64,000 bases of DNA, from positions 325,748,001 to 325,812,000 of the forward strand of contig OZ024740.1 in the NCBI GenBank assembly GCA_964016885.1, in the 5' to 3' direction. Numbering within the stretch: position 1 is the first letter of the stretch; each line of letters begins with the position of its first letter. The position numbers and the translations under genes are program-made. The notes beneath the pieces are model-generated. The model was not told the DNA's origin. It did no database searches and saw only the letters and a list, made by a program, of their open reading frames with translations. The stretch is from Eledone cirrhosa. Lineage: Eukaryota. Positions 4,762-64,000 of the stretch are shown piece by piece.

Positions 4762-5688
4762 GTAAGTCTTTTTTACATTCCTATGACAAACTACTGTATC
4801 CTGTTTATAGTGATGTGACTGTGGAGTTAACGTTTAGCATACTAGTAATTTTTATGAATTGTTTCCCTTGACACTGCAATATCTATTAAGGGGACATTAC
4901 TCATATGGCGCATTTAGTCATCCGCAGTGTGTTGAAGGTTAAGTAGTTTGCTTTGCAGTCATGTTGTTTCAGGTTCGTTCACACTGCTTAACATCTTTGG
5001 TAAATATCTTCTATTGGGTTGGCCAATACTTGGTGAGGTAAATTTGGTAAACAGAAATTATATGTGTGTGTTTATGCCTTTGTTTATGTCCCATAGTTTA
5101 GCAATATGACAAAAAGAGAGAATTAAAATAGTGCCAGACTTGAAAAATAAGTACTAAGAATATTTACCATGCATATAGCCTAGTGGTTAGTGTGTTGGTC
5201 TCATGATCATAGAATTGTGTATTTGATTCCTAGTCCAAGTATTGCATTGTGTTTTTGAGCAAAACATTGTATTTTACATTGATTTTCATTAAAACATTCT
5301 AGACATCTATGAGATGTAACTTCAGAGAAGATCAGCTAAAACTGCATAGGTGTGAGCTGTAACATTAAAAATATGATAGGACTGGGGCTGCAATCATTAA
5401 AGTCCCAAGAAACTTCTTATGAGATACAATTTCATAGAAAGCCAACTAAACCTACATAGGTATGAGCTGTAACTTAAACTCTTAACATTTTATGATGATT
5501 TAGCAGAGAATATCTAAAAACAAGATAATTCAAATGTGTTTAGTATCTTTACTAGTGGACAGATTATTGTGAAAATTTGCAGTAAACTAAAGGCTTATTA
5601 ATGTGGTTTCATGCAGTACAGAACATTATGAGTTAACTTTGCTTCTAACTAGTTAATATTTATTCCTTTTGCATTTAATTTTTTCAAG

Positions 5689-13609: not shown

Positions 13610-14536
13610 CATTAGTCTTTACTTTAATTTACTGCAAATTTTCACAACAATTTTATAAGTATTTAAATTAACAAACCGCATAAAACCACATCACCAAGGC
13701 ATTCTTGAAAAATACAAAACAGCACTATGACAGCATCACATTTATTATATTAAAGTGCTAACAATAGATTGTGTGTAGTGTAAATTTATGTCATGCTGTA
13801 GAAAGGGAATGGTATGTGTGATAGAGCAAGATTAAGAGGGAAAGATAAACACAATTTTTTTTTATTTATTAAATTCATGCCTTTATGAAAAAGAGTGTTA
13901 TATGTGTCTGTGTGTATATGTGTGTATGAGGGAGAGAGAGAGAGAACCAAAAGACAAATTACTTTTTAAAACTTAGGTCATACTGTAGAAAGGGTGTATG
14001 TGAAAAAGAATGTGAAAGTGGTGGTCTTGAAATCTTTTTTAAAACCTGTTTAAATATTGGTTATCTTCAAGTAATGAGTAGAATATTCCATTTTTGGAGT
14101 TTGTCTTTTGTTAATATATTATTTGTGTTTGTCCATATATATAATGTATGTATGTGTGTATGTAAAAGGTAAACAGAAATAACTACACAAACAGTACATT
14201 ATATGGAAGGAATGTATTAGTTTAATGCTTGAAATAGCAGGAAGAGGGTCTTAACGTTTTGGACATTAGTCCTTCATCAGAAGAAAAAAATTAGAAAGAT
14301 GGAAGGGATGGGCAGGTAGGAATCTGAAAAAATGTTTTTAGAGAAAAATAACAGGTCCATTCACGTTACCATATATGTATGTGCATATATATGTATATAT
14401 ATATATATTATAAAGAGTCAGCACCCAACTCTTTATAATATAACCACACTATACTACCCCAAGTATAGAGAAACTGTTGAGTAATGGTCTACCTGTTTCA
14501 AACTGATTTATATATATATATATATATATAAATATA

Positions 14537-15228
14537 TCATCATCATCATCATCACCGTTTTACGTCCGTTCTTCCACGCTAGCATGGGTTAGATGGGTTG
14601 TCCTGTTGTGGGCAGTGTCTGGTCAGCTGACCATGTCTTGCTCATACAGGAACTGATTTGGCTTGATTTCTACAGCTGGATGCCCTTCCTAACACCGACA
14701 TCATTTACAGAGAGTGCTGGGTGCTTTTTCGTGGCGCCTACACGTCCACTTTACAGTGTGGGCTGGGTACTTTTTTGCCGTGGCACCTCCACGACCACCT
14801 TGCGGTGGGGGCATATTGTCTATATGCTTCAGCTTGTATCAATGGGAGGTCGGGTACTCTGTATTACTGCGTGACGCCAGAGATCACGGTTGTGTGTCAT
14901 TGCCTTTGAGAGGTGTAATTGGGTAAGGTTGGCATTTATCACCTCATCCCAGGTCTTCTAGGGTCTCCCCACTCCGCGGTTTCCATCGACTTCTAGTGCT
15001 CTGCACCTTTTTATGCAGATGTCATCCTTCATGCGCATCACATATCCATACCAGCGCAACCGCCTCTCCTGCACACAGCATTTGATTCCTCTTATGCTCA
15101 GTCTCCCTCTCAATTCATTTATGCTTTGTCGTTCATGTATATTACTGTTACACATCCATCGGAGCATGCAGGCTTTGTTTCTCTCTAATCTACGTAAGTC
15201 TTCCACCTTCAGCGCCCAGGTCTCACTA
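14537..15228 (-). mobile_element. RTE LINE 3' end, subfamily A (duplicated at 20404-21090)
   Basis: RRLRWYG and GRP C-terminal motifs, 3' UTR, (GAT)n tail. Confidence 0.92.
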
Positions 15229-15246
15229 TTTATATATATATATATT

Positions 15247-15281
<35 letters not shown>

Positions 15282-15372
15282 TTATATATATATTTATATA
15301 TATATTTATATATATATTTATATATATATATTTATATATATATATTTATATTTATATTTATATTTATATATT

Positions 15373-15403
<31 letters not shown>

Positions 15404-15452
15404 ATTTATATTTATATATATATATTTATATTTATATATATATATTTATATT

Positions 15453-15484
<32 letters not shown>

Positions 15485-15562
15485 TATATATATTTATTTA
15501 TATATATTTATATATATATATTTATATATATATATTTATATATATATATTTATACATATATT

Positions 15563-15593
<31 letters not shown>

Positions 15594-15594
<1 letters not shown>

Positions 15595-18500
15595 CGATAT
15601 TAATAAATGGAAACTATATTTATAAAACCATATTTATTTCATTATACATATTTCAGGGATACCACATTAAATTATGGTATGCCTTCATGAGACAAAATAC
15701 AATATATAACAGTTTTACAAATAGGTTTGACGTACCCTTTAAAATACAACCATTACTTTTGGAGGCTGTCTGGATAGTGATTTGTTTATATAATAAGTCA
15801 TAGTGTTAAGCACAATTAGAAAAAGACGGAGAGAAAGAAAAAAAGACGGAGAGAGAGAAAAGAACAAAGACAGAGAGAGGGAAAGAAAAGAGAAATATCG
15901 GAGAGAGAGAGAAATGTATGGAGAAAAGAGATAGATAAGGATAGGAGGAAATAAAAAAGAAAGAAAAGGAAGGAATAAGAAAAACAAAGGAAAGCAACAG
16001 AGAGATATCAAGTCATCATACAGAAAGAAAAACTCAAGAGAGAGAAATACTATATAGAGAGAGGGGGACAGTGACAACTTTACGTCATGTCATATTAAGT
16101 TGAGTTAACAATTTATATGAAATGAATAATAAAAATATAAATATAAGTATCAATATTCATGAATGGGACATAGATATATAATATGAGAAATTAAACATTG
16201 TTCAATAATGACCATATGTTTAGTTTAGAAACTTGAGATCAATATACCAAAATCTGAGTTCAAAATGTACCCTTGTTATAGAGATTAGTATTTTATGCAG
16301 ATATATATGTATATATACATACAGATATATATGTATATATACATACATATAGATACGCACGTCCTGAAAATAGAAATTATGTTTACTCAAGCCAACAATA
16401 TAGCCATACGAAACGTAAATGATTTCTCTTAATCATTGCTATATAGTCATTGTGTTATAAAAATTTCACAGTATATATATACAAATATATACGATTAACA
16501 ATCATGTCCTCATATATACGATTACCATTCATGTGTTTAATATTATGCACATCTGCAACATACCTCTCAACCACATAGATATATACACATACATATATAC
16601 ACATACATATATACACATACATATGTATAAATAAATATTTGCGTGCGTCCTCATGCATCACTCATGTATATATACAGACACATATACAAACACAAAAAAT
16701 CTATAACACTTTCTATGCATGTTAATACACACATATGCATTTGTATAGAGATAATCCAATATCAATAAATTACCAAAGGATTATAATTTGTAAATATAAC
16801 CATAGCAATACAAATTTAAAATACCAAAGGACTATATTTTGGAAATGCAACTATATAGTCAAAAGAAATCTAGAAATATCAAAGCATTAAATATCATTAA
16901 AACACTATAGAGTATCTTAAGTTAAAATAATATGTTTTATATATTTAGTATAGAAATTTATCCTACGTATATCTCAATCAAGATATTGAGAGGGTAGACT
17001 TGTGAAAGTTATGAGAAGCTATCATAATCAAAACAAATAAATAAAAATAATTTAAAAGATTTAAAAAATTTAAAAAACCCAATGATTCTACAGATAACCT
17101 TATATTTAATATAGAAATTTACCTTACGTATATTTTATTTAATACACTGGAAGTATAGACATTTTAGAGTAGTTTATTATATCCATGTTTATATTTAGGA
17201 AGAAAGTTTAAAAAGAAAAAGGTGAAGGAATCTAATGGATTATCGACAGGTTCCATATATTAACTAAAATTACTTAATTAATTATACTACATTTTAAATT
17301 TATATTTAAACGTTGAGTTCAATCTATGTCTGCAGCAACTGAATAAATTGTTCCTCAGATTAAGGGAATTTTTGGACTTTAATATAAAGAATATTTCTTC
17401 AATACAAAGATACCTGGGTGACAAAATCAGCAGCGGGGGAGGGTGCTCTGAAAGTACAGTAGCTAGAGTCAGAACTGGATGGAAAAAGTTCAGAGAGCTT
17501 ATACCACTATTAGCCGCTAAAGGGTTCTCCCTAAAAATGAAAGGCAGGTTGTATGATGCCTGCATACGAACAGCAATGTTGCATGGCAGTGAGACCTGGG
17601 CATTGTGTGCAGAGGATATACGCAGACTAGAGAGGAACGAAGCTTGCATGCTCCGCTGGATGTGTAATAGTAATATACGTGAACGGCAAAGCATAAACGA
17701 ACTAAGGAAAAAATTAGAAATAAGAGGGATCAGATGTTGTTTACTCGAGAGAAGGCTACGTTGGTATGGTCACGTGATGCGCATGAAAGACGACAGCTGT
17801 ATAGCAAAGTGCAGGGCATAAAGATAGATGGTAGCCACGGAGTAGGCAGACCCAGAAAAACCTGGGACGAGCTGATAAATTCCGACCTCACACACTTACA
17901 CCTCTCCAAGACAATGTCACTGGACCGAGACCTTTGGCGGTACTCAGTAATAGAGAAGACCCACCTTACCTAAATACAAAGTAAAACCTACTACAGTCGG
18001 CAGGCATCTCTAACAAAATACACCCCCGTCCCACCACCCCGCCCCTTTCAATGTAAAGTTATGTTGGTGCCACAACATCCAGGCCGAAACATATGAGATC
18101 GTGTAGGTGTCATGACAAAAAAAACACAGTCCACGCTGTAATGTGGCCATGTAGGTAACACGGTAAAAACCTCCCAGTCCCACACTGTAAATGTGGTTGG
18201 TGTTAGGAAGGGCATCCAGCTGTAGAAAACCTGCCAGACAGTCCACACTGTAATGTGGCCGTGTAGGCAACACGGTAAAAACCTCCCAGCCCCACACTGT
18301 AAATGTGGTTGGTGTTAGGAAGGGCATCCAACTGTAGAAAATCCGCCAGACAGTCCTATGTGAGCAAGACAACCACTCTTGCCTCAAGTGGGAAAACTCC
18401 CATCCAAACCCATGCAAGCGTGGAACATGGACGTTAAACGATGATGATGATGATGAAACTTCACAATTTTCTGAAGAGGAATTAAAAGGAGTAGCTTTTG

Positions 18501-18803
18501 AAATAATATTCCAATTCAACAAATATTTAATATTATCTCGTTTTAGGTCCCATAGTAGGCTAGATAGCGAAGTTGAAGATTTTTTGTTTGGATCTGTGAA
18601 AGAATTCTTATGATTATTGAAGCGAAATTTAAATTCTGTAGAGGTGGAACCAACATAGTTAAATGAATTTAAATTAGTTTTAACATTACAATTGTACACT
18701 ACATTTTTAGCTAAGCAGTTGTTACTTAACGGACAGTTAGATTTATTTCTACAGTTACAGTTATTTAATTGAATATTGTTTGGGTTATTATTGGTAAAAT
18801 AAT
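15594..18803 (-). mobile_element. Penelope-like element 3' part (GIY-YIG endonuclease and 3' region), split by an RTE insertion; duplicated at 21456-24665
   Basis: VYNC...YVGST...FKFRFNNHK...W...CEV joined to CIEEIFFIL...LN.RNNLFSCCRH once 17409-18455 is removed; degenerate hammerhead near its 3' end. Confidence 0.85.
17409..18455 (+). mobile_element. RTE LINE, 5'-truncated, subfamily B (duplicated at 23271-24317)
   Basis: YLG, GSETW and RRLRWYGHV motifs; (GAT)n tail; possible AAA target duplication. Confidence 0.92.
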
Positions 18804-20080
18804 AACTCCTCCGTTATTGCCTGCAGGACTATGATGAACAGGAGAGGGCTAAGGACAGAGCCCTGGTGGACCCCAACCTGTACGCTAAATTCCTCGCTAT
18901 ACTCATTGTTAATCCTAACTTTGCTGACTGCTCCCCTATACATGGCTTGTACCGCTTTCACAAGCCATTCATCTACTTCTAGTTTTCTAAGAGCCCACCA
19001 GATTACAGCACGTGGAACTCTGTCAAAGGCTTTCTCAAGGTCGACAAATGCCAAGTAGAGTGGCTTACTTTTAGCTAGGTACTTTTCCTGTAATTGCCTC
19101 ACAAGGAAGAGGGCATCAGTGGTGCCTCTTCCTGGTACAAACCCAAATTGCATCTCGTCTATATTCACCCGGTCCCTAATCAGCTGTGCTATAACTCTTT
19201 CTGTTACTTTCATGACCTGGTCCATCAACTTTATACCTCTATAGTTTCCTCTATCTAGTGCATCGCCTTTACCTTTGTAGCAGTTGACAATGATGCTACT
19301 GCACCAATCTTTTGGTATGGCCCCTTCTAGTATTACCTGGTTAACGATACGTGTGGTTATAGTGTGACCTACAGACCCAGATGCCCTCAGCATCTCGGCA
19401 GCTATACCCGATGGACCGGTTGCCTTCCCCATCTTCATATCTTTGATTGCCTTACTTACTACACTGCTGCTGACTTGTACTGCTGGTCCCTCTATAGGGT
19501 CTACTTGGGGTAGGGTCTCTTCTTCCCATGCATTCTCCTCATTTAGTAATCTATCATAATGACTCTTCCATGCATCTTTCTTCTCAGCACTTGTGAGGGC
19601 AAGCTCACCTTTATCATTCCGGATACACTTCTCTCCAATGACATCGCAACTATCTCTGACACACTGCCTCGCAATCTTGAATACCTCCTGTTTCTGGTCC
19701 TCACGTTGTAAAACATGCTTGAATTTTCTATCCTCTACTTCCCTCCTAGCTAAGTATACTTGTCGCCTAGCTTCCCTCTTGGTCTCTATGTAATGTACCC
19801 TGCTCCCTCAGTTCTTCCATTCTTTCCATGCCTGTCTCTTGGCCTTATCTGCTTCATCTACCTTATTGTTCCACCACCAAGTCACTCTCCTCCTGCTTGA
19901 GGTCTTACTCCAGCCACAGACCTCATCCGTCGCCTCTAGTAAATTATTTTTTAGGAACTCCCAGTTCTCTTCTACGTTAAATGTCTCTATCTGTTCTTCT
20001 TTACTATCGTAGGCGTTGAGTAAAATATCTTTAAATCTGTTACTGGTTGAGGGGACTTTCAGCTTCCAGATCTTTCTTCT
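18804..20080 (-). mobile_element. RTE LINE internal RT fragment (duplicated at 24666-25942)
   Basis: NYRGIKL, QFGF, FVDLEKAFDRV and GVHQGSVLSP motifs. Confidence 0.93.
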
Positions 20081-21108
20081 ATATATTTATATATATATAT
20101 TTATATATTTATATAGGCATACCATATTTTTAATATGATATCCCTGAAATATATATAATGAAATAAATATGGTTTTATAAATAAAGTTTCCATTTGTTTA
20201 ATATCGTATATATTTATATATATATTTATATATATATTTATATATATATTTATATTTATATATATATTTATATATATTTATATATATACATATTTATATA
20301 TATATATATATATATTTATATATTTATATATATTTATATATTTATATATATTTATATATATATATATATTTATATATATATTTATATATATATATTTATA
20401 TATATCATCATCATCACCGTTTTACGTCCGTTCTTCTACGCTAGCATGGGTTAGATGGGTTGTCCTGTTGTGGGCAGTGTCTGGTCAGCTGACCATGTCT
20501 TGCTCATACAGGAACTGATTTGGCTTGATTTCTACAGCTGGATGCCCTTCCTAACACCGACATCATTTACAGAGAGTGCTGGGTGCTTTTTCGTGGCGCC
20601 TACACGTCCACTTTACAGTGTGGGCTGGGTACTTTTTTGCCGTGGCACCTCCACGACCACCTTGCGGTGGGGGCATATTGTCTATATGCTTCAGCTTGTA
20701 TCAATGGGAGGTCGGGTACTCTGTATTACTGCGTGACGCCAGAGATCACGGTTGTGTGTCATTGCCTTTGAGAGGTGTAATTGGGTAAGGTTGGCATTTA
20801 TCACCTCATCCCAGGTCTTCTAGGGTCTCCCCACTCCGCGGTTTCCATCGACTTCTAGTGCTCTGCACCTTTTTATGCAGATGTCATCCTTCATGCGCAT
20901 CACATATCCATACCAGCGCAACCGCCTCTCCTGCACACAGCATTTGATTCCTCTTATGCTCAGTCTCCCTCTCAATTCATTTATGCTTTGTCGTTCATGT
21001 ATATTACTGTTACACATCCATCGGAGCATGCAGGCTTTGTTTCTCTCTAATCTACGTAAGTCTTCCACCTTCAGCGCCCAGGTCTCACTATTTATATATA
21101 TATATATT

Positions 21109-21143
<35 letters not shown>

Positions 21144-21234
21144 TTATATATATATTTATATATATATTTATATATATATTTATATATATATATTTATATA
21201 TATATATTTATATTTATATTTATATTTATATATT

Positions 21235-21265
<31 letters not shown>

Positions 21266-21314
21266 ATTTATATTTATATATATATATTTATATTTATATA
21301 TATATATTTATATT

Positions 21315-21346
<32 letters not shown>

Positions 21347-21424
21347 TATATATATTTATTTATATATATTTATATATATATATTTATATATATATATTTA
21401 TATATATATATTTATACATATATT

Positions 21425-21456
<32 letters not shown>

Positions 21457-24400
21457 CGATATTAATAAATGGAAACTATATTTATAAAACCATATTTATT
21501 TCATTATACATATTTCAGGGATACCACATTAAATTATGGTATGCCTTCATGAGACAAAATACAATATATAACAGTTTTACAAATAGGTTTGACGTACCCT
21601 TTAAAATACAACCATTACTTTTGGAGGCTGTCTGGATAGTGATTTGTTTATATAATAAGTCATAGTGTTAAGCACAATTAGAAAAAGACGGAGAGAAAGA
21701 AAAAAAGACGGAGAGAGAGAAAAGAACAAAGACAGAGAGAGGGAAAGAAAAGAGAAATATCGGAGAGAGAGAGAAATGTATGGAGAAAAGAGATAGATAA
21801 GGATAGGAGGAAATAAAAAAGAAAGAAAAGGAAGGAATAAGAAAAACAAAGGAAAGCAACAGAGAGATATCAAGTCATCATACAGAAAGAAAAACTCAAG
21901 AGAGAGAAATACTATATAGAGAGAGGGGGACAGTGACAACTTTACGTCATGTCATATTAAGTTGAGTTAACAATTTATATGAAATGAATAATAAAAATAT
22001 AAATATAAGTATCAATATTCATGAATGGGACATAGATATATAATATGAGAAATTAAACATTGTTCAATAATGACCATATGTTTAGTTTAGAAACTTGAGA
22101 TCAATATACCAAAATCTGAGTTCAAAATGTACCCTTGTTATAGAGATTAGTATTTTATGCAGATATATATGTATATATACATACAGATATATATGTATAT
22201 ATACATACATATAGATACGCACGTCCTGAAAATAGAAATTATGTTTACTCAAGCCAACAATATAGCCATACGAAACGTAAATGATTTCTCTTAATCATTG
22301 CTATATAGTCATTGTGTTATAAAAATTTCACAGTATATATATACAAATATATACGATTAACAATCATGTCCTCATATATACGATTACCATTCATGTGTTT
22401 AATATTATGCACATCTGCAACATACCTCTCAACCACATAGATATATACACATACATATATACACATACATATATACACATACATATGTATAAATAAATAT
22501 TTGCGTGCGTCCTCATGCATCACTCATGTATATATACAGACACATATACAAACACAAAAAATCTATAACACTTTCTATGCATGTTAATACACACATATGC
22601 ATTTGTATAGAGATAATCCAATATCAATAAATTACCAAAGGATTATAATTTGTAAATATAACCATAGCAATACAAATTTAAAATACCAAAGGACTATATT
22701 TTGGAAATGCAACTATATAGTCAAAAGAAATCTAGAAATATCAAAGCATTAAATATCATTAAAACACTATAGAGTATCTTAAGTTAAAATAATATGTTTT
22801 ATATATTTAGTATAGAAATTTATCCTACGTATATCTCAATCAAGATATTGAGAGGGTAGACTTGTGAAAGTTATGAGAAGCTATCATAATCAAAACAAAT
22901 AAATAAAAATAATTTAAAAGATTTAAAAAATTTAAAAAACCCAATGATTCTACAGATAACCTTATATTTAATATAGAAATTTACCTTACGTATATTTTAT
23001 TTAATACACTGGAAGTATAGACATTTTAGAGTAGTTTATTATATCCATGTTTATATTTAGGAAGAAAGTTTAAAAAGAAAAAGGTGAAGGAATCTAATGG
23101 ATTATCGACAGGTTCCATATATTAACTAAAATTACTTAATTAATTATACTACATTTTAAATTTATATTTAAACGTTGAGTTCAATCTATGTCTGCAGCAA
23201 CTGAATAAATTGTTCCTCAGATTAAGGGAATTTTTGGACTTTAATATAAAGAATATTTCTTCAATACAAAGATACCTGGGTGACAAAATCAGCAGCGGGG
23301 GAGGGTGCTCTGAAAGTACAGTAGCTAGAGTCAGAACTGGATGGAAAAAGTTCAGAGAGCTTATACCACTATTAGCCGCTAAAGGGTTCTCCCTAAAAAT
23401 GAAAGGCAGGTTGTATGATGCCTGCATACGAACAGCAATGTTGCATGGCAGTGAGACCTGGGCATTGTGTGCAGAGGATATACGCAGACTAGAGAGGAAC
23501 GAAGCTTGCATGCTCCGCTGGATGTGTAATAGTAATATACGTGAACGGCAAAGCATAAACGAACTAAGGAAAAAATTAGAAATAAGAGGGATCAGATGTT
23601 GTTTACTCGAGAGAAGGCTACGTTGGTATGGTCACGTGATGCGCATGAAAGACGACAGCTGTATAGCAAAGTGCAGGGCATAAAGATAGATGGTAGCCAC
23701 GGAGTAGGCAGACCCAGAAAAACCTGGGACGAGCTGATAAATTCCGACCTCACACACTTACACCTCTCCAAGACAATGTCACTGGACCGAGACCTTTGGC
23801 GGTACTCAGTAATAGAGAAGACCCACCTTACCTAAATACAAAGTAAAACCTACTACAGTCGGCAGGCATCTCTAACAAAATACACCCCCGTCCCACCACC
23901 CCGCCCCTTTCAATGTAAAGTTATGTTGGTGCCACAACATCCAGGCCGAAACATATGAGATCGTGTAGGTGTCATGACAAAAAAAACACAGTCCACGCTG
24001 TAATGTGGCCATGTAGGTAACACGGTAAAAACCTCCCAGTCCCACACTGTAAATGTGGTTGGTGTTAGGAAGGGCATCCAGCTGTAGAAAACCTGCCAGA
24101 CAGTCCACACTGTAATGTGGCCGTGTAGGCAACACGGTAAAAACCTCCCAGCCCCACACTGTAAATGTGGTTGGTGTTAGGAAGGGCATCCAACTGTAGA
24201 AAATCCGCCAGACAGTCCTATGTGAGCAAGACAACCACTCTTGCCTCAAGTGGGAAAACTCCCATCCAAACCCATGCAAGCGTGGAACATGGACGTTAAA
24301 CGATGATGATGATGATGAAACTTCACAATTTTCTGAAGAGGAATTAAAAGGAGTAGCTTTTGAAATAATATTCCAATTCAACAAATATTTAATATTATCT

Positions 24401-26255
24401 CGTTTTAGGTCCCATAGTAGGCTAGATAGCGAAGTTGAAGATTTTTTGTTTGGATCTGTGAAAGAATTCTTATGATTATTGAAGCGAAATTTAAATTCTG
24501 TAGAGGTGGAACCAACATAGTTAAATGAATTTAAATTAGTTTTAACATTACAATTGTACACTACATTTTTAGCTAAGCAGTTGTTACTTAACGGACAGTT
24601 AGATTTATTTCTACAGTTACAGTTATTTAATTGAATATTGTTTGGGTTATTATTGGTAAAATAATAACTCCTCCGTTATTGCCTGCAGGACTATGATGAA
24701 CAGGAGAGGGCTAAGGACAGAGCCCTGGTGGACCCCAACCTGTACGCTAAATTCCTCGCTATACTCATTGTTAATCCTAACTTTGCTGACTGCTCCCCTA
24801 TACATGGCTTGTACCGCTTTCACAAGCCATTCATCTACTTCTAGTTTTCTAAGAGCCCACCAGATTACAGCACGTGGAACTCTGTCAAAGGCTTTCTCAA
24901 GGTCGACAAATGCCAAGTAGAGTGGCTTACTTTTAGCTAGGTACTTTTCCTGTAATTGCCTCACAAGGAAGAGGGCATCAGTGGTGCCTCTTCCTGGTAC
25001 AAACCCAAATTGCATCTCGTCTATATTCACCCGGTCCCTAATCAGCTGTGCTATAACTCTTTCTGTTACTTTCATGACCTGGTCCATCAACTTTATACCT
25101 CTATAGTTTCCTCTATCTAGTGCATCGCCTTTACCTTTGTAGCAGTTGACAATGATGCTACTGCACCAATCTTTTGGTATGGCCCCTTCTAGTATTACCT
25201 GGTTAACGATACGTGTGGTTATAGTGTGACCTACAGACCCAGATGCCCTCAGCATCTCGGCAGCTATACCCGATGGACCGGTTGCCTTCCCCATCTTCAT
25301 ATCTTTGATTGCCTTACTTACTACACTGCTGCTGACTTGTACTGCTGGTCCCTCTATAGGGTCTACTTGGGGTAGGGTCTCTTCTTCCCATGCATTCTCC
25401 TCATTTAGTAATCTATCATAATGACTCTTCCATGCATCTTTCTTCTCAGCACTTGTGAGGGCAAGCTCACCTTTATCATTCCGGATACACTTCTCTCCAA
25501 TGACATCGCAACTATCTCTGACACACTGCCTCGCAATCTTGAATACCTCCTGTTTCTGGTCCTCACGTTGTAAAACATGCTTGAATTTTCTATCCTCTAC
25601 TTCCCTCCTAGCTAAGTATACTTGTCGCCTAGCTTCCCTCTTGGTCTCTATGTAATGTACCCTGCTCCCTCAGTTCTTCCATTCTTTCCATGCCTGTCTC
25701 TTGGCCTTATCTGCTTCATCTACCTTATTGTTCCACCACCAAGTCACTCTCCTCCTGCTTGAGGTCTTACTCCAGCCACAGACCTCATCCGTCGCCTCTA
25801 GTAAATTATTTTTTAGGAACTCCCAGTTCTCTTCTACGTTAAATGTCTCTATCTGTTCTTCTTTACTATCGTAGGCGTTGAGTAAAATATCTTTAAATCT
25901 GTTACTGGTTGAGGGGACTTTCAGCTTCCAGATCTTTCTTCTATATATTTATATATATATATTTATATATTTATATAGGCATACCATATTTTTAATATGA
26001 TATCCCTGAAATATATATAATGAAATAAATATGGTTTTATAAATAAAGTTTCCATTTGTTTAATATCGTATATATTTATATATATATTTATATATATATT
26101 TATATATATATTTATATTTATATATATATTTATATATATTTATATATATACATATTTATATATATATATATATATATTTATATATTTATATATATTTATA
26201 TATTTATATATATATATATATTTATATATATATTTATATATATATATTTATATAT

Positions 26256-32422: not shown

Positions 32423-34936
32423 TCATCATCATCATCATCATCATCACCGTTTTACGTCCGTTCTTCCACGCTAGCATGGGTTAGATGGGTTGTCCTGTTG
32501 TGTGCAGTGTCTGGTCGGCTGACCATGCCTTGCTCATACAGGAACTGATCTGGCTTGATTTCTACAGCTGGATGCCCTTCCTAACACCAACCTCATTTAC
32601 AGTGAGTGCTGGGTGCTTTTTCGTGGCGCCTACACGTCCACTTTACAGTGTGGGCTGGGTGCTTTTTTGCCGTGGCACCTCCACGACCACCTTGCGGTGG
32701 GGGCATATTGTTTATATGCTTCAGCATGTACCCATGGGAGGTCGGGTACTCTATATTACTGCGTGACGCCAGAAGTCACGGTCGTGTGTCATTGTCTTTG
32801 AGAGGTGTAATTGGGTAAGGTCGGCTTTTATCACCTCATCCCAGGTCATCTTGGGTCTCCCCACTCCGCAGTTTCCATCAACTTCTAGTGCTCTGCACCT
32901 TTTTATGCAGCTGTCATCCTTCATACGCATCACATGTCCATACCAGCGCAACCGCCTCTCCTGCACACAGCATTTGATTCCTCTTATGCTCAGTCTCTCT
33001 CTCAATTCATTTATGCTTTGTCGTTCACGTATATTACTGTTACACATCCATCGGAGCATGCAGGCTTCGTTTCTCTCTAATCTACGTAAGTCTTCCACCT
33101 TCAGCGCCCAGGTCTCACTACCATGCAACATCGCTGTTCGGATACACGCATCATACAGTCTGCCTTTCATTCTGAGGGAGAAGCCTTTTGCAGCTAGCAG
33201 TGGTAGTAGTTCCCTAAACTTCTTCCATCCCGTTCTTACCCTAGTTATTGTACTTTCTGAACACCCACCTCCGTTGCTAATTCGGTCACCTAGGTAGCAG
33301 AAGCTGTCTACTGTTTCTACAGGGCCCTCCCAGAGATTGGTGGTACTTGTTTCCTGTGGCTGTTTGCTGCTTGCTGTTTCAGCACAGCTGCTACATCTGA
33401 ATCCTACATTCTTAATTAAGCTTCCTGAGATCCCGCTACATCTCTTGTGTACCCATTGTTTGCATTTGGGGCAGAGAATGGAGTTCCTACCTACACCTTT
33501 CCTACATACTGAGCAAGGCCATTTCCCTGAGGGGATCTGGGTTCTGTTTTCTCGTCTACTTACAAGGACCTTAGTCTTTGTCATGTTGACTTTGAGGCCC
33601 TTTCTCTCTAGTCCCTGCTTCCAGGTTTGGAATTTATTCTCTAGTTCTATCATAGATTCAGCTATGAATGCGAGGTCATCAGCATACAGGAGTTCCCATG
33701 GGCATCCGGTCTTAAATTCCTCCGTTATTGCCTGCAGGACTATGATGAACAGGAGAGGGCTAAGAACAGAGCCCTGGTGGACCGCAACTTGTACGCTAAA
33801 TTCCTCGCTATACTAATTGCTAATCCTAACTTTGCTGACTGCTCCCCTATACATGGCTTGTACCGCTTTCACAAGCCATTCATCTACTCCTAGTTTTCTA
33901 AGAGCCCACCAGATTACAGCACGTGGAACTCTGTCAAAGGCTTTCTCAAGGTCGACAAATGCCAAGTAGAGTGGCTTACTTTTAGCTAGGTACTTTTCCT
34001 GTAATTGCCTCACAAGGAAGAGGGCATCAGTGGTGCCTCTTCCTGGTACAAACCCAAATTGCATCTCGTCTATATTCACCCGGTCCCTAATCAGCTGTGC
34101 TATAACTCTTTCTGTTACTTTCATGACCTGGTCCATCAACTTTATACCTCTATAGTTTCCTCTATGTAGTGCGTCGCCTTTGCCTTTGTAGCAGTTGACA
34201 ATGATGCTACTGCACCAATCTTTTGGTATGGCCCCTTCTAGTATTACCTGGTTAACGATACGTGTGGTTATAGTGTGACCTACAGACCCAGATGCCTTCA
34301 GCATCTCGGCAGCTATACCCGATGGACCGGTTGCCTTCCCCATCTTCATATCTCTGATTGCCTTACTACGCTGCCGCTGACTTGTACTGCTGGTCCCTCT
34401 ATAGGGTCTACTTGGGGTAGGGTCTCTTCTTCCCATGCATTCTCCTCATTTAGTAATCTATCATAATGACTCTTCCATGCATCTTTCTTCTCAGCACTTG
34501 TGAGGGCAAGCTCACCTTTATCATTCCGGATACACTTCTCTCCAATGACATCACAACTATTTCTGACACACTGCCTCGCAATCTTGAATACCTCCTGCTT
34601 CTGGTCCTCACGTTGTAAAACATGCTTGAATTTTCTATCCTCTGCTTCCCTCCTAGCTAAGTATACTTGTCGCCTAGCTTCCCTCTTGGTCTCTATGTAA
34701 TGTACCCTGCTCCCCCCGTTCTTCCATTCTTTCCATGCCTGTCTCTTGGCCTTGACTGCTTCATCTACCTTAATGTTCCACCACCAAGTCACTCTCCTCC
34801 TGCTTGAGGTCTTACTCCAGCCACAGACCTCGTCCGTCGCCTCTAGTAAATTACTTTTTAGGAACTCCCAGTTCTCTTCTACATTAAATGTCTGTATCTC
34901 TTCTTCTTTACTGTCGTAGGCGTTGAGTAAAATATC
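32423..34936 (-). mobile_element. RTE LINE, 5'-truncated, subfamily A
   Basis: full RT core through C-terminus; premature stop at 33813 and frameshift near 34360; (GAT)n tail. Confidence 0.95.
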
Positions 34937-55089: not shown

Positions 55090-56378
55090 TTATAATGAAA
55101 TGACAGGAGGATGGACTTGTGTAAATCCTTGAAAGGTTTATTATACTATGATCATTTCAATGACCGGGTTCCATATGAATCCGGTTATATCATCAGGTAT
55201 TCGAAATATAATACGTGAATGTAATAGATAAAATCCATGGGGCTGAAAATCGAGGACCCGAGGGTGACCGCTATCTTGCACCCTCTATCTTAGCCGGTCG
55301 CCCTCGGGTGACGTGGCTAAGGCTCACAGTGTGCTACTACCGGTCAGATAAAGGAAAACAGAAAGGGATGGGGACATAAGTTACAAGACAAAAGAAAGAA
55401 AGAAAGGAAGGAGAGAGAAGAAGGGGAAGGAAGAAGAAGAGAAGCCAGGGTTAATGTCAGCTATAAGAAGAAAGACAGAAAGAGGAGGAAAGGTCGGTAT
55501 TACAGTCGGGCCAGGATTGTCGCGAAGAAATTTTTTTCTTCTACGGGACCCGTATCTAAACAACTACTACCGGTCAGATATAAGCGAACAAAAAGGGGGA
55601 AGTAAGATAAGTCTGCGGGAGGAAGACAGAAAGAGGGGAGAAAAGAAGTAGAAGAGTAAGGGTTGATGGCTACAAGAAGGAAGATAGAAAGAAAGAGGAA
55701 GAAAGGTCGATATTAATGTCAGACTACAGTCAGGCCAGGAATGGCGCGAGAAAATGTTCACAGGGACCCGTATCTTAGCAGAGCTGAATATAGTGGGGGT
55801 CAGTGTGTTATAATGTGTGAGCAGAAGATTGAAACGTTATGTTTTTGTTTAGACTTAGAGGATGAAGTTAAAAATTAATAATTAATAATTAATATCAAAG
55901 AAATTAGAAAATTTAAAGTAAAACAGTTTAACTTTTTAAGGTTGAGATATCTAATAGTTCTGTAATACCGACCTTTCCTCCTCTTCCTTTGTCTTTCTTC
56001 TTATAGCTGACATTAACCCTGGCTTCTCTTCTTCTTCCTTCCCCTTCTTCTCTCTCCTTCCTTTCTTTCTTTCTTTTGTCTTGTAACTTATGTCCCCATC
56101 CCTTTCTGTTTTCCTTTATCTGACCGGTAGTAGCACACTGTGAGCCTTAGCCACGTCACTCGAGGGCGACCGGCTAAGATAGAGGGTGCAAGATAGCGGT
56201 CACCCTCGGGTCCTCGATTTTCAGCCCCATGGATTTTATCTATTACATTCACGTATTATATTTCGAATACCTGATGATATCACCGGATTCATATGGAACC
56301 CGGTCATTGAAATGATCATAGTATAATAAACCTTTCAAGGATTTACACAAGGCCAGCCTCCTGTCATTTCATTATAAT
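55090..56378. repeat. about 420-bp near-perfect inverted repeat (55090-55506 / 55960-56378) with about 450-bp spacer; probable Penelope-like pseudo-LTRs
   Basis: arms are reverse complements with few mismatches and each holds a hammerhead motif. Confidence 0.9.
56267..56324 (+). ncRNA. type I (dimer-type) hammerhead motif in a Penelope-like pseudo-LTR; antisense copy at 55143-55200
   Basis: AUAC-CUGAUGA-(ACCGGAUUC...GAACCCGGU stem II)-GAAA-UGAUCA palindrome-UA, predicted cut, then GUAU; base of stem II is imperfect (U-U). Confidence 0.65.
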
Positions 56379-56417
<39 letters not shown>

Positions 56418-56503
56418 TGTATGTATATATATATATATACATATGTGTGTGTGTGTTGTATGTATATATATATATATATACATATGTGTGTGTGTGTTGT
56501 ATG

Positions 56504-56538
<35 letters not shown>

Positions 56539-56544
56539 TGTATG

Positions 56545-56575
<31 letters not shown>

Positions 56576-56623
56576 TGTATGTATATATAATATAAATATA
56601 TATATGTGTGTGTGTTGTATGTG

Positions 56624-56656
<33 letters not shown>

Positions 56657-56896
56657 TGTATGTATATATAATATATATATATATATATGTGTGTTGAATG
56701 TATGTATATATATATATACATATGTGTGTGTGTGTGTTGTATGTATATGTATGTATGTATATATATATATATATAAAGAATGAATAATAACAGGTAGACA
56801 TAATAAAAAGGTAATTTATTCCGTGTGCTTACAAATGTTTCCATGGTGTTTATACAGCGTAGTTATGCTATGTGCAAATTTATAACTATTTGCAAT

Positions 56897-57243
56897 TTCA
56901 TCATCATCATCATTCATTTCATTTTACGTCCGCTTTTTCCCTGCTTGCAAGGGTGGGACGGGAACTGATTCTGGCTTGATTTCTACAGCTGGATGCCCTT
57001 CCTAACACCAACCTCATTTACAGTGAGTGCTGGGTGCTTTTTTGCCGTGGCACCTCCACGACCACTTTGCAGTGGAATGATATGGACCCCAGTCCCTATC
57101 ATCTCATTTCTACAGCTGAGTAAACTGGAGCAATGTGAAATAAAGTGTCTTGCTCAAGGAAACAACACATCACCCGGTCTGAGAATTGAACTCACAACCT
57201 TTCGATTGCAAGGCCAATGCTCTAACCACTAAGCCATGTGCCT
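56897..57243 (-). mobile_element. SINE family 1
   Basis: near-identical to the other family 1 copies. Confidence 0.88.
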
Positions 57244-57311
57244 CCATATATACTTTGTATATAGATACATATATATATATATATACAACACACACATATA
57301 TATATATATAT

Positions 57312-58878
57312 ATCATCATCATCATCATCAAAACCGTTTTACGTCCGTTCTTCCACGCTAGCATGGGTTAGACGGGTTGTCCTGTTGTGGGCAGTGTCTG
57401 GTCGGCTGACCATGCCTTGCTCATACAGGAACTGATCTGGCTTGATTTCTACAGCTGGATGCCCTTCCTAACACCAACCTCATTTACAGTGAGTGCTGGG
57501 TGCTTTTTCGTGGCGCCTACACGTCCACTTTACAGTGTGGGCTGGGTGCTTTTTTGCCGTGGCACCTCCATGACCACCTTGCGGTGGGGGGAGTGGGGGC
57601 ATATTGTTTATATGCTTCAGCATGTACCCATGGGAGGTCGGGTACCCTGTATTACTGCGTGACGCCAGAAGTCACGGTCGTGTGTCATTGTCTTTGAGAG
57701 GTGTAGTTGGGTAAGGTCGGCTTTTATCACCTCATCCCAAGTCATCTTGGGTCTCCCCACTCCGCGGTTTCCATCAACTTCTAGTGCTCTGCACCTTTTT
57801 ATGCAGCTGTCATCCTTCATACGCATCACATGTCCATACCAGCGTAACCGCCTCTCCTGCACGCAGCATTTGATTCCTCTTATGCTCAGTCTCTCTCTCA
57901 ATTCCTTTATGCTTTGTCGTTCACGTATATTACTGTTACACATCCATCGGAGCATGCAGGCTTCGTTTCTCTCTAATCTACGCAAGTCTTCCACCTTCAG
58001 CGCCCAGGTCTCACTACCATGCAACATCGCTGTTCGGATACACGCATCACACAGTCTGCCTTTCATTCTGAGGGAGAAGCCTTTTGCAGCTAGCAGTGGT
58101 AGTAGTTCCCTAAACTTCTTCCATCCCGTTCTTACCCTAGTTATTGTACTTTCTGAGCACCCACCTCCGTTGCTAATTCGGTCACCTAGGTAGCAGAAGC
58201 TGTCTACTGTTTCTACAGGGCCCTCCCAGAGATTGGTGGTACTTGTTTCCTGGGGCTGTTTGCTTGCTGTTTCAGCACAGCTGCTGCATGTGAATCCTAC
58301 ATTCTTAATTAAGCTTCCTGAGATCCCGCTACATCTCTTGTGTACCCATTGTTTGCATTTGGGGCAGAGAATGGAGTTCCTACCTACACCTTTCCTACAT
58401 ACTGAGCAAGGCCATTTCCCTGAGGGGATCTGGGTTCTGTTTTCTCGTCTACTTACAAGGACCTTAGTCTTTGTCATGTTGACTTTGAGGCCCTTTCTCT
58501 CTAGTCCCTGCTTCCAGGTTTGGAATTTATTCTCTAGTTCTACCATAGATTCAGCTATGAGTGCGAGGTCATCAGCATACAGGAGTTCCCATGGGCATCC
58601 GGTCTTAAACTCCTCCGTTATTGCCTGCAGGACTATGATCAACAGGAGAGGGCTAAGAACAGAGCCCTGGTGGACCCCAACCTGTACGCTAAATTCCTCG
58701 CTATACTCATTGCTAATCCTAACTTTGCTGACTGCTCCCCTATACATGGCTTGTACCGCTTTCACAAGCCATTCATCTACTCCTAGTTTTCTAAGAGCCC
58801 ACCAGATTACTGCACGTGGAACTCTGTCAAAGGCTTTCTCAAGGTCGACAAATGCCAAGTAGAGTGGCTTACTTTTAG
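57312..58878 (-). mobile_element. RTE LINE, 5'-truncated, subfamily A, uninterrupted ORF (young copy)
   Basis: about 420 aa open frame with FVDLEKAFD and YADD. Confidence 0.95.
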
Positions 58879-58893
58879 TACAACACACACACA

Positions 58894-58981
<88 letters not shown>

Positions 58982-59063
58982 TGTATATGTATGTGTGTGT
59001 TGTGTGTGTGTTGTATATATATATGTATGTGTGTGTGTTGTATATATATATGTATGTGTGTTT

Positions 59064-59094
<31 letters not shown>

Positions 59095-59121
59095 TGTATA
59101 TATGTATGTGTGTGTGTGTTG

Positions 59122-59154
<33 letters not shown>

Positions 59155-59247
59155 GTGTTGTGTAGATATATATATATATATATATATGTGTGTGTTGTAT
59201 ATATATATATATGTGTGTGTGTTGTATATATATATATGTGTGTGTTG

Positions 59248-59282
<35 letters not shown>

Positions 59283-59458
59283 TATATGTATGTGTGTTGT
59301 GTATATATATATATATATATGTGTGTGTGTTGTATATATATATATATGTATGTATATGTGTGTTGTATATATATGTATATATATATATGCCAGAGGGCAT
59401 AGATTGTAGCTACAACCAAAATCTAATCTAGTCCTCTTTCTATTAATATCCATCACAG

Positions 59459-59636
59459 GAAGCTGCTGTATGTATTATGACTACCTCTAGAGAAGCTGAG
59501 CTCTACCTGGCAAAAAATGCTGACACCATTAAAGATGAAGACATCTTCACATTAGCCATTACCACCTATGCTCTGACTCTGTCCAATCAAAAGAATGCAT
59601 TTATCTACAAAAGGCTCTGGAATCTACACCAAGGGG
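59459..59636 (+). CDS. exon T (EAAVCIMTTS...FTLAITTYALTLS...LWNLHQG), phase 0-1
   Basis: cacAG acceptor, GTatgt donor, 178 nt; LA...YAL helix of the thioester domain. Confidence 0.9.
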
Positions 59637-59819
59637 GTATGTTTTCATGTTTTCTATAGCTCCATCACCATCCTCATCTCTTTCTCCATCACCATCCTTA
59701 TTTTCATCTTCAACAGCATCACTACCATCATCACATATTTTCTTACTGGCATGGGTTGAATGGGTTGTTAGTTTAATGTTTAGCTTCGTTTCTACATCTA
59801 GATCCCCCTTCCTGACACC

Positions 59820-59914
<95 letters not shown>
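59820..59914. repeat. perfect (AC)n microsatellite, about 47 units
   Basis: direct inspection. Confidence 0.97.
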
Positions 59915-59916
<2 letters not shown>

Positions 59917-60445
59917 TTTAATGTCCATTCCCTCCCTGCTAGCAAGGGTTGAACATGTCGCCACAATGTCATTACTTAATCAGATCTACTGGCATGCATA
60001 CGTGTGCCAAGTAGGTGACATGACAAAAAGTACCCAGTCCAAACTGTAAAGTGGTCATGTAGGTGACACACAAAATGCACCCAGCCCACATTTTAAATGT
60101 GATCGGCATTAGGAAGGGCATCCAGCTGTAGAATCCAAGCCCAAATCAGTTCTGTATGAGCAAGATGAGGTCATCTGACCTGGCTTGTCGCATAACAGGA
60201 CAACTTGTCTAACCCATGCTAGCATGGGAAAGTGGTTGTTAAATAGTTGATGATGAGGTTATGTATACACACATGTATATAAACATATCATCATTTAACA
60301 TCTATTTTCCAGGGCTGCTCAGAGGAGGATGAGTTAGGGATGTAAATGAGGAAAGATTAATGTGGGGGTGATAGAAAGGAGCAACTTAAATATGGTTGCA
60401 TCTGCCCTTTACAGACATTCTTACATGCTGATTTCATCCCACTTA

Positions 60446-60571
60446 TAATAATAATAATGAATATTATTGTGTACATTGCTCAGGTGCACTATAACTCATC
60501 AAAGGTGCATGTATAGTACATAGAATAATGTACAAATGTCAGGAAAGTGAACAATGTATGAGTCATGATAT
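60446..60571 (-). mobile_element. short CR1 3'-tail fragment
   Basis: nearly identical to 51130-51255. Confidence 0.8.
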
Positions 60572-60723
60572 ACAGATAAACACACACACACACACACACA
60601 CATGCATGTGTGTGTGGAAGCACAAGTCTTCTGTAGTGCAGCAGATCACCAACCAACTTTATCCTCTGTCATCTTCTCCATCAGGTCCAAATATTTTTTC
60701 ATAACAGAAAAAAAAAGTCACAG

Positions 60724-61050
60724 AATGTCAGTTTCAGTTGAGAATCCCAAATAGTGCTGTTTCAAGATTTGTTAATCTCTCATAAGTGACATTCACTCAA
60801 TCATGGCAATAGACTAGAGTCTATATAGATTTTACATGATGAAAATTTGCTAGAAATGCTCATTTGCATATAACTTGGTTGGTTATAATTGATTGACAGT
60901 AGCACTAAGACTGTGTTTAAACATATCATACAAAATCTATATAGACTCTAGTCTATTTCTATGTCAGTACTAGTTGAGTGAATGTCACTGATGAAAGGTT
61001 AACAAATCTTGAAACAGTGCTGTCTGGTATTCTTGTGTGATACTGACATT
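60724..61050. repeat. imperfect inverted repeat (about 60724-60840 / 60926-61050)
   Basis: ctgtttcaagatttgttaa pairs with ttaacaaatcttgaaacag; aatagactagagtctatatagatttt pairs with aaaatctatatagactctagtctatt. Confidence 0.9.
60980..61032 (+). ncRNA. type I hammerhead ribozyme motif
   Basis: GAAUGUCA-CUGAUGA-AAGGUU(AACA)AAUCUU-GAAA-CAG(UG)CUG-UC, predicted cut, then UGGUAUUC; all core nucleotides present, stem I 8 bp, stem II 6 bp. Confidence 0.8.
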
Positions 61051-61291
61051 GCACATACACATACATACGTAAAAATAAATACATACACACACTCACACAC
61101 ACTCACACATACATATACACATACATACACATACACACATATACATATATACATATATATACATATATATATATATCTATACATATATACACATACATAC
61201 GTACATATCACAAACACATACATACAAATACATATACACACATGTGTGTAAAACTCATTCTTAGATGTATTCATATGAATCTTGTTTAACT

Positions 61292-61351
<60 letters not shown>

Positions 61352-61870
61352 TATATATATATATACATACACACACATATATACATACACATACACATAC
61401 ATATATATATACATACACACACATATATACATACACATACACATACATACATACACACACACACATATATATATATAAGAAAAAACATAAATATTATATA
61501 TATAAAAAAAACAAATGTATATATAAAAATAAAAAGTTGGGAATACGACAAATAATAAATAAATAAATAATTAAAAAAGGGTATAAATGTTTATAGCTTA
61601 TATAGAGCACTCAACAAATTCCTGGAGCAAATGATCAATGCAAATTATGCATATACACACACATACATGTATATATATATATACACACACAACCATAGAA
61701 ATACACACACACACACACACACACATACATATATATATACACATATAGGAAAATGTATGACCCCACGCCAGAGCTCAAGCCGTTTCTGAGGCTATTATAT
61801 ATATACACACAAAACCATTATATAAAAATACACACACACACAAATATACACACACACATTATAGATATAT

Positions 61871-61968
<98 letters not shown>

Positions 61969-61969
61969 A

Positions 61970-62304
61970 GGCACATGGCTTAGTGGTTAGAGCATTGGCC
62001 TTGCAATCGAAAGGTTGTGAGTTCAATTCTCAGACCGGGTGATGTGTTGTTTCCTTGAGCAAGACACTTTATTTCAAATTGCTCCAGTTTACTCAGCTGT
62101 AGAAATGAGATGATAGGGACTGGGGTCCATATCATTCCACTGCAAAGTGGTCGTGTAGGTGCCACGGCGAAAAAAACACCCACCACTCACTGTAAATGAG
62201 GTTGGTGTTAGGAAGGGCATCCAGCTGTAGAAATCAAGCCAGAATCAGTTCCCGTCCCACCCTTGTAAGCAAGGAAAAAGCGGACATAAAATGAAATGAA
62301 ATGA
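61970..62304 (+). mobile_element. SINE family 1
   Basis: near-identical to the other family 1 copies; flanked by (TA)n. Confidence 0.88.
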
Positions 62305-62402
62305 ATATATATATATATACACACACACAAATACAATAGAAGCATATAAAATACAATTATATACACACATACATATCCATACAGATAAATATAAACATAC
62401 AT

Positions 62403-62484
<82 letters not shown>

Positions 62485-62487
<3 letters not shown>

Positions 62488-64000
62488 ACACACAGAAATA
62501 AATATCTAAAATTATAAAAGGTGGGTATGTGAAGGGTAAGGTAGAAAGTAGGGGGGAAAATAATGAAAATAAATGACATAGGAAAAGGTTTAAATATAAG
62601 GGGAGATAAGGGAGAAAAAGAATATAAGAGTACAGAAAGTGAATTCAGAAGGTAAAAAAACCCTAGTGGATGTAAGGCGTAGAGAGCAGAGAAGAAGTTC
62701 AAGGTGGTTGAGTTATCGTAAGAATGTCAATCCAGTTACAGATCCGGTGTGATTTCAGGTGAGGACAACATCTGAAGATCTCTGTCTTTGAGTTCAGGCA
62801 AGTTGAAGTGGCTTTCAAGTTTTGTAAAATCCAAAATTTTTCCGTGGTACACAAAGAACAATTCTTTGTGCCCCTTTGGTACTCCTTCGAATGGTCTAAA
62901 ATAGACCAATCGATAGAGTACGGGATGTTTTTATCCTTGAATTCCCACACCTTATTAGCGAGAGCCGTTGCTGTTCTTTTATCGGAGTGTTTAAAAGAAG
63001 CGACATGTGCATAAAACCTGGTTTTAAACCTGTCCTGAGTCATGCCAACATATCGTTCACTCCTGGCTGGCTGGTTATTAATTAAAGGTGTCACTTTGGC
63101 CTCATATACAATGGATTTGGTGTTACATTTGCCCTGTAATGGGCATTCATCCGGTTTCCTGCAACTGCATCCTGGATTTATTCTCGTACGATTGGAATTA
63201 GTGAATTTAGACTTCATTGATGGGCAGCAAGAGTAACTGATTTTAACTACATTTCTATTAAATATCTTATAATATCTATGATTAGGAGGAAAATGTTTAT
63301 CTAAGAGGTCAAGGAGTTTCCTTCCTACATTAGTTTTGACAGTTAGAGAGAAGGGGGTGTAAACCAAATAATTTTCCTTTTCCTATTATTTAGGGGGGGG
63401 GGGAGTAGGTAAATAATTAATTTGTTCTGTAAATCCGCTGTTATTAAGGGCTTTATTATAATAAGGGGCGGCTTTATTAAAAATATCTAGAGACGAAGAT
63501 AAGGTAGAAATCCTACGGCTAATGTTGGGGATAAGATTTTTTAAAACTATAGTGGGATGGCAAGACTCTTTGTGTATATATCTAAGATTTTCGTTAGGTT
63601 TATGATAAGGTTTAAAAGAGGCAGTAAGTAGATCAAGATTAATGTCAAGAAAGTTATCATTGGTAAGGTTCGTATCTATAGTAATTTTAAGGTTAAGATT
63701 AGCAAAAGTATTGATTAAATCTTTACGGAATTTATCAAGGTTATGGCCGTTGGTGGTATGAGAAATTGCCAATCCGTCATCACGGTATAAAACGATATTA
63801 TGGGAAGGAAATTTCTCTTTGAGGGTGTGGAGAAGGAATAATCCTACTAAGTCACACACATCCGCACTGTCATATGAACCCATTGCAACATCAAAAGAGT
63901 TTTCAGGGTTTGACTTTTTAACCCAAATACTTTCATTAGTAAAGAGTAAAGTTTTTCTAGCATGAAAGATAATGTCTTCTTCTAATTTAGAAATATTAAT
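62485..64000 (-). mobile_element. Penelope-like element (RT plus C-terminal GIY-YIG), continues beyond the window
   Basis: MGSYD and LYRDDGL RT motifs; CSCRKPDECP linker; IVYEA...YVGMT...FKTRF...CSLC..EK...LN..TE...CPH endonuclease. Confidence 0.93.

Follow-up and report, generated by a model that had tools for sequence, protein, structure and literature searches.

An intron in which a hammerhead ribozyme faces a damaged antisense copy of itself raises the question of whether the pair is a regulatory device of the host gene or the residue of a mobile element. Such an arrangement is present in the stretch of octopod DNA analysed here, 64,000 nucleotides from Eledone cirrhosa (hereafter the window), for which the original prediction was a fold-dependent switch, with an intact ribozyme on the transcribed strand that could be blocked by its decayed upstream arm and modulated by ADAR editing.

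The hammerhead motif and its host intron

The host gene, an Mcr-like TEP, lies on the + strand. Its exons are placed by two octopod thioester-domain proteins (76-81% across the query exon), whose matches map exon by exon on that strand over the window and 20 kb further; the short upstream exon, when used for an initial protein search, gave no match. The presence of an LDLa-like module and the lack of a GCGEQ-type thioester motif, which are defining features of Mcr, fit the Mcr-like label. The element is located inside an 8.3-kb intron (Table 1), and the hammerhead starts 1,344 nt past the donor of the exon ending at 59636, which bears out the predicted position of the ribozyme about 1.3 kb after an exon of an Mcr-like gene on this strand.

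Table 1. Coordinates of the repeat copies, hammerhead motifs and host gene features in the window.
Feature	Position	Strand	Remarks
Upstream exon, TED domain of Mcr-like TEP	59453-59636	+	host-protein mapping
Host intron	59637 to window-equivalent 67907	+	end beyond window
Left repeat copy	~60689-60928	-	monomer ~160 to 392, on to ~88
Left arm of inverted repeat, as paired in + strand pre-mRNA	60724-60850		
Damaged hammerhead of left copy	60742-60794	-	U in place of G5 at 60784, stem III disrupted, AUU at the cut site
Hairpin loop, 74 nt	60851-60924	-	5' part of left copy
5'-to-5' (head-to-head) junction, no gap	60925-60928		repeat alignment and public contigs
Right repeat copy	60925-61050	+	monomer ~293 to 392, on to ~26; then (CA/TA) microsatellite
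Type I hammerhead motif	60980-61032	+	12/12 core positions; predicted cut after 61024

A stretch of approximately 5.9 kb is found twice in tandem in a host intron (~14500-19500 and 20400-25400) with identical ORF translations, and represents either a recent duplication or an assembly artefact. A short inverted duplication (55141-55605 and 55928-56326) has identical translations on opposite strands, and fragments of RT with a PHD-like cysteine cluster behind them (57617-58894 on the - strand, and 32767-33890; Pfam RVT_1 and PHD) occur in several copies among the introns of the host gene. SINE-type tRNA-like heads in opposite orientation (57179-57236, -, and 61976-62033, +) flank the exon at 59453-59636. 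Downstream of the host gene, at locus L144 (1684-4632), the translations contain replication/helicase fragments that are presumably Helitron-like.

The motif of the right copy comprises a CUGAUGA core, GAAA and a GUC triplet, all found by sequence, and agrees at every position with the core consensus (C3 U4 G5 A6 N7 G8 A9, G12 A13 A14, A15.1-U16.1, H17). Three helices of 8, 6 and 3 pairs are possible, with an open stem I whose wobble pairs total 3 (exceeding a plain duplex by 2 G-U), an A-U pair at the base of stem II, and a palindromic stem III. The latter is a 10-nt near-palindrome ending in GUC (61014-61023), which in the monomer forms 3 bp closed by a GUGC tetraloop; the pairing originally drawn, CAG-UG-CUG, requires a 2-nt loop that the energy model forbids. 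The label "minimal" given to this hammerhead also had to be abandoned in view of its stem lengths, since the min-HHR of Penelope-like elements (PLEs), as characterised in the relevant part of PMC4209133, lacks stem III, has a helix I of 4-5 bp and a helix II of 7-8 bp, and is further marked by an unpaired base 5' of helix II. The right-copy motif fits instead, by its sequence, the description of the canonical metazoan type I hammerhead given there. The G10.1-C11.1 pair mentioned in the same source as typical of canonical hammerheads is absent, being A-U in the right copy and in the majority sequence of the repeat family described below, and G-U in one variant class.

Of the complete type I hammerhead originally predicted, the core, the GUC triplet and stems I and II stand, but the claim that 60980-61032 folds as one goes too far. 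Its minimum-energy fold instead joins the CAGUG of stem III to CACUG in stem I/core, a competing helix that exists because a CpG-type change in stem III created CAGUG. In the energy model, the active fold of the isolated right copy lies 8.6-10.5 kcal/mol above the ensemble, compared to 4.2-4.6 kcal/mol for the family majority, and it is energetically inaccessible in the right copy both alone and with the left arm. The family majority also has an outer stem I of 5 more pairs beyond a 2-nt bulge, a feature bearing on a loop 1/loop 2 tertiary contact and lost from the right copy via 4 changes at 61034-61037. A scan of 56000-64000 against Rfam, the hammerhead model search proposed along with the prediction, yielded microsatellite and tRNA-like matches only, and no hammerhead model match at E<=10.

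A dispersed 392-nt repeat family

Each arm is a piece of a non-coding repeat whose 392-nt unit has a GC content of 0.35, a longest stop-free run of 59 aa and a single hammerhead. The majority sequence, whose ends repeat every 392 nt, was derived from 131 of 140 fetched loci (9 overlapping or duplicated ones were dropped), and removal of 2 further duplicates left 129 loci with 208 fragments, chosen by similarity or pattern and not at random. A DNA search detected copies at 83-92% on many chromosomes among the 40 of 838 candidates that were scored. A 30-nt pattern of core and stem II has 96 exact matches in the genome, far beyond chance given 0 for the reversed control; these matches contributed 60 new stretches in addition to ones already in the set. 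A stem III pattern with a perfect palindrome has 32 genome matches. Since about 4% of copies are expected to match the 30-nt pattern under the measured decay spectrum, the 96 matches correspond to an estimated ~2,400 copies, a figure that ignores indels and subfamilies. The genome-wide copy count suggested with the prediction therefore identifies the element as anything but a one-off. The best other matches to the full unit reach only 74-80% (40 of 1,124 candidates scored), so that there is no young copy among the scored ones; 25 loci from this search were left out of further analysis.

Copies exceeding one unit account for 36 of the 208 fragments, the longest being 669 nt. Of 128 copies, 46 carry one stem I variant and 33 another, each able to pair; stem III is 10 nt long in 98 of them and 8 nt in 26, with the palindrome kept in both length classes. 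These subfamily differences preserve the structure, which points to selection during the active period of the family.

Among copies picked by their upstream sequence, mismatches affect 33 of 320 core positions (10.3%) and 528 of 5,305 flank positions (10.0%, p=0.85; CpG and polymorphic sites are left out of this rate, which lowers it), and the full core is retained in 7 of 26. The mismatch at CpG sites in these copies is 42%. The catalytic core thus decays at the flank rate across copies. A lenient test, in which the core must be complete and every inner stem pair kept, G-U included, marks the right copy as unusually well preserved and so speaks against its being a mere relic: it is passed by the right copy, by none of 43 copies picked without regard to the core, and by 0.7% of copies in a substitution-only decay simulation. 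However, the test is also passed by 9 other copies in the set, with ~16 expected among ~2,400, and the right copy was noticed in the first place for its intactness, the very property that the test scores.

As for its nature, the family has a tandem unit within 150-450 bp (392 nt) carrying one type I hammerhead, and so has the sequence characters of a metazoan non-LTR retrozyme. The original proposal, a retrozyme-like element that is non-autonomous and whose stem III is palindromic, is accordingly supported, and no RT + GIY-YIG ORF is attached to the units in the copies analysed. It represents an extinct family, apparently unreported in octopods: literature on octopus in connection with hammerhead, Penelope or retrozyme yielded no such family, although the supplement of PMC7229834 may list cephalopod families. 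For the giant squid genome, the pertinent part of PMC6962438 counts 235 Rfam hammerheads without detail.

Insertion anatomy and the inverted arrangement

The ends of the copies are informative with respect to how the family moved. Whereas 5' starts are scattered, 3' ends cluster at monomer positions 184-203 (50/208) and 150-172 (49/208), for which ~11 and ~12 would be expected if uniform; the two preferred ends, ~35 nt apart, together make up 99 of the 208. Flanks after the long end are mostly (TA)n-rich as read by eye. Head-to-head junctions are present in 34 of 129 loci (the present locus and 33 more), tail-to-tail in 1, and 30 of the 34 head-to-head junctions abut within 20 nt. In the 10 junctions with both outer ends at preferred positions, 7 are long+short, 3 short+short and none long+long. 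Penelope-like insertions, as described in the corresponding part of PMC8557442, are truncated at the 5' end, form partial tandems, target microsatellites and carry an inverted 5'-truncated copy and, at one end, a 30-40 bp tail; the end and junction patterns of the family match this type of insertion. Hammerhead pairs on opposite strands, 100-700 bp apart, have already been mentioned (PMC4209133, in the part on such pairs).

A broken Penelope-like element with RT and, at its C terminus, a region of GIY-YIG type (62490-64000, -) lies in the same intron, 1.5 kb downstream. Its family yielded 59,127 candidates, of which 150 were scored at 88-97% protein identity; some of its members have open frames >700 aa, and a microsatellite is found in the 3' region. 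The element at 62500-64000 was rejected as parent or partner of the retrozyme, there being no common 3' end and one weak 45-nt match (E=0.008) over 30 loci. At locus L126 (1083-1396), a GIY-YIG fragment adjoins a retrozyme fragment on the same strand, an adjacency seen at 1 of 131 loci and probably due to chance. Near Penelope copies there is a second, different family of hammerheads, characterised by a stem II of 4 bp, a stem III that is short and palindromic, and A at the cut (L159, L161 and L175, with two copies ~420 nt apart in L175); it likely represents the minimal pLTR-type motif. More hammerhead-core-like motifs near Penelope copies were noted in L166, L175 and L159, as well as in L167 and L172, where they are paired on opposite strands and flank the Penelope element.

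The Penelope-type ends, together with the 5' truncation of most Penelope insertions, could also be accounted for if an autonomous Penelope-like element, with ORF copies outside the sample, had the family as its terminal repeat (pLTR), or if the family were a MITE bounded by terminal inverted repeats. At 2 of the 131 family loci there is indeed a Penelope protein fragment (38-43% to that of the window). Nevertheless, copies extending beyond one unit continue into another unit and not into an ORF, and the 84 5' flanks tested include only 4 pairs with common abutting sequence and no common extension. Moreover, Penelope endonuclease fragments are so abundant in this genome, given the candidate number above, that 2 Penelope neighbours are unremarkable. 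The MITE variant was rejected, since the inverted pieces begin at variable positions of a tandem unit, unlike fixed terminal inverted repeats. Taken as a whole, this origin is decidedly improbable.

At the locus itself, the left copy has suffered deletions of ~47 nt between two internal direct repeats, of 9 nt and of 26 nt, and its CUUAUGA core and AUU cleavage-site triplet confirm the inverted repeat with a mutated left core that had been predicted. The 74-nt loop was considered as a foreign spacer and rejected, as it is family sequence. The paired arms (60724-60850 and 60925-61050) are 84% identical across 117 aligned columns. Contigs from three public runs cross the junction with 0 differences, although all three runs derive from one sample, from which the assembly itself may have been made, and this support is hence not independent; run depth over the core is ~4,600-5,500, compared to 5-6 for unique contig, and is not to be read as a copy number. 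Measured against the family majority, each arm has an identity of 87%, and the changes private to one arm number 9 on the left and 9 on the right. Of the changes within the 53-nt motif, 6 belong to the left copy and 3, all of them pair-keeping, to the right. The supposed design of an intact copy opposed to a decayed one is difficult to maintain in view of the equal numbers of private changes and of the recurrence of the inverted arrangement across loci. A hammerhead core in both arms is found at 5 of 129 loci, the locus under study included. Both arms have T14 and A16 in common, a combination present in 3 of 135 other copies, and this rarity favours a single template and a single insertion event. 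The preferred 3' ends and (TA)n junctions of the family are missing at the locus, where both copies have lost their usual 3' ends, and the marks of insertion hence constitute family-level evidence.

Fold in the pre-mRNA, origin and related systems

Within 60724-61050, forcing the hammerhead fold in the presence of the left arm costs ~62 kcal/mol in an energy model that, like the others used, omits tertiary contacts, Mg2+, proteins and kinetics. In folds of the growing transcript, pairing with the left arm involves 53 of the 66 right-arm nucleotides present at 60990, where the core emerges, and 85 of the 100 present at the cut site. Simulated A-to-G changes at 10-100% of arm adenosines outside the motif still leave a gap of 45-69 kcal/mol, and when arm adenosines are made unpairable 29-53 kcal/mol remain at 30-50% of them and 15 kcal/mol at all those outside the motif. 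A switch needs two states of similar energy, whereas those found here are ~60 kcal/mol apart and the blocking arm is transcribed first. The ribozyme is therefore predicted to be permanently off: according to these models, the hairpin keeps it locked off in the pre-mRNA, and is likely not a gene switch.

Octopods are heavy RNA editors, and an antisense arm gating a selected hammerhead in an octopod Mcr-like intron, to be opened by ADAR or a helicase, would link RNA editing to intron self-cleavage. The sense orientation within the intron, the octopod host and the place of the right copy in the best-preserved ~1% by the lenient test are in keeping with such a co-opted function. It is hardly credible all the same, as the arms have drifted equally, their arrangement is common to about a quarter of the loci (34/129), and editing, for which the simulated proxies leave 15-69 kcal/mol and thus offer no modulator of the kind originally envisaged, would also reach the five catalytic adenosines that lie in the duplex.

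A less demanding alternative shares the same origin, but treats the right copy as a weak ribozyme that has no selected function and still severs the intron from time to time, with the left arm protein-bound, edited or untranscribed. The 12/12 core, the inner stem pairs all kept and the GUC triplet are compatible with residual activity, as is the stem III self-dimer, which is still possible at a predicted -12.4 kcal/mol (-16.9 for the family majority). This would have to be reconciled with the CpG decay of stem III that gave rise to the competing helix, the loss of outer stem I, the A-U pair at the base of stem II and the 62 kcal/mol gap in context predicted by the model. In addition, the locus has one motif per strand and the window contains no second same-strand copy, and 8 of 9 predicted Xenopus dimers failed to cleave in the set reported in part of 10.64898/2026.07.22.740005. 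We consider this residual activity unlikely.

We thus regard it as very probable that the locus consists of decayed fragments of the 392-nt family, lying 5'-to-5' in the intron and likely derived from one Penelope-type insertion of an extinct non-LTR retrozyme, with a ribozyme that should, by prediction, be locked off. During the active period of the family, transcripts of more than unit length would have been cut by the hammerhead into monomers or circles, with dimerisation through the stem III palindrome helping this cleavage. A Penelope-like RT/GIY-YIG protein acting in trans may then have copied the retrozyme RNA into (TA)n tracts, beginning at a preferred site ~197 nt past the cut and often leaving an inverted, 5'-truncated second copy. 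The arms at the present locus would stem from one template and have been identical at insertion, with drift and the loss of outer ends coming later. Transcription of the host gene would produce the left arm first, which would zip up the right arm on its emergence; because of this order, what is expected is a long imperfect duplex, a plausible ADAR substrate, that is not cleaved and plays no part in regulation. The locus is likely an ordinary repeat relic; in genomes of this kind, an intact-looking hammerhead facing a broken one is to be expected as a by-product.

The closest parallel is provided by the non-LTR retrozymes of the mussel Mytilus galloprovincialis, reported in part of PMC7229834 to have units of 350-390 bp and ~5,000 motifs. 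The octopod family resembles them in its non-coding, low-GC (35%) 392-nt unit with one type I hammerhead, its short stem III with a tetraloop, its thousands of copies and its mollusc host. It differs in that no long tandem arrays were seen (up to ~1.7 units in 208 fragments), all copies are old, and the locus has a single motif on each strand. With Penelope-like insertions, as covered in part by PMC8557442, it shares 5' truncation, partial tandems, an inverted 5' copy, (TA)n flanks and two 3' ends ~35 nt apart. Unlike the Penelope-like elements treated in the relevant portions of PMC8557442 and PMC4209133, it is without an RT/GIY-YIG ORF, and its hammerhead is of the canonical and not of the minimal PLE type.

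Vertebrate non-LTR retrozymes (10.64898/2026.07.22.740005, in the part concerned with their genomic copies) are likewise dispersed monomers, many of them intronic, for which mobilisation by PLEs has been proposed; in Xenopus, 42-44% of copies are intronic and 1 of 9 tested dimers cleaved. A sequence link to a PLE pLTR of the sort discussed for those elements was not found here among 30 loci of the neighbouring Penelope family, and the locus, with its one hammerhead per strand, lacks the two consecutive complete hammerheads by which activity is defined in that source. So far, the main grounds for proposing Penelope mobilisation have been pLTR similarity and co-occurrence in vertebrates. The insertion anatomy of the octopod family, i.e. 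a fixed 3' end ~197 nt from the cut, a one-sided tail, inverted 5' copies and copies of more than one unit, gives direct structural support for Penelope-like machinery moving such elements. The family also extends non-LTR retrozymes to octopods, which is of modest use.

Finally, the locus may be compared with the intronic hammerheads of amniotes and the HDV-like ribozyme of CPEB3, with which it has in common that the intron of a protein-coding gene contains a ribozyme motif on its sense strand (PMC6765202, in its account of these cases). The role of these conserved intronic ribozymes is still without definitive proof according to that account. They are single conserved loci, whereas the octopod locus is one of many decaying copies, predicted to be sequestered by its own antisense counterpart and bearing no clear sign of selection.
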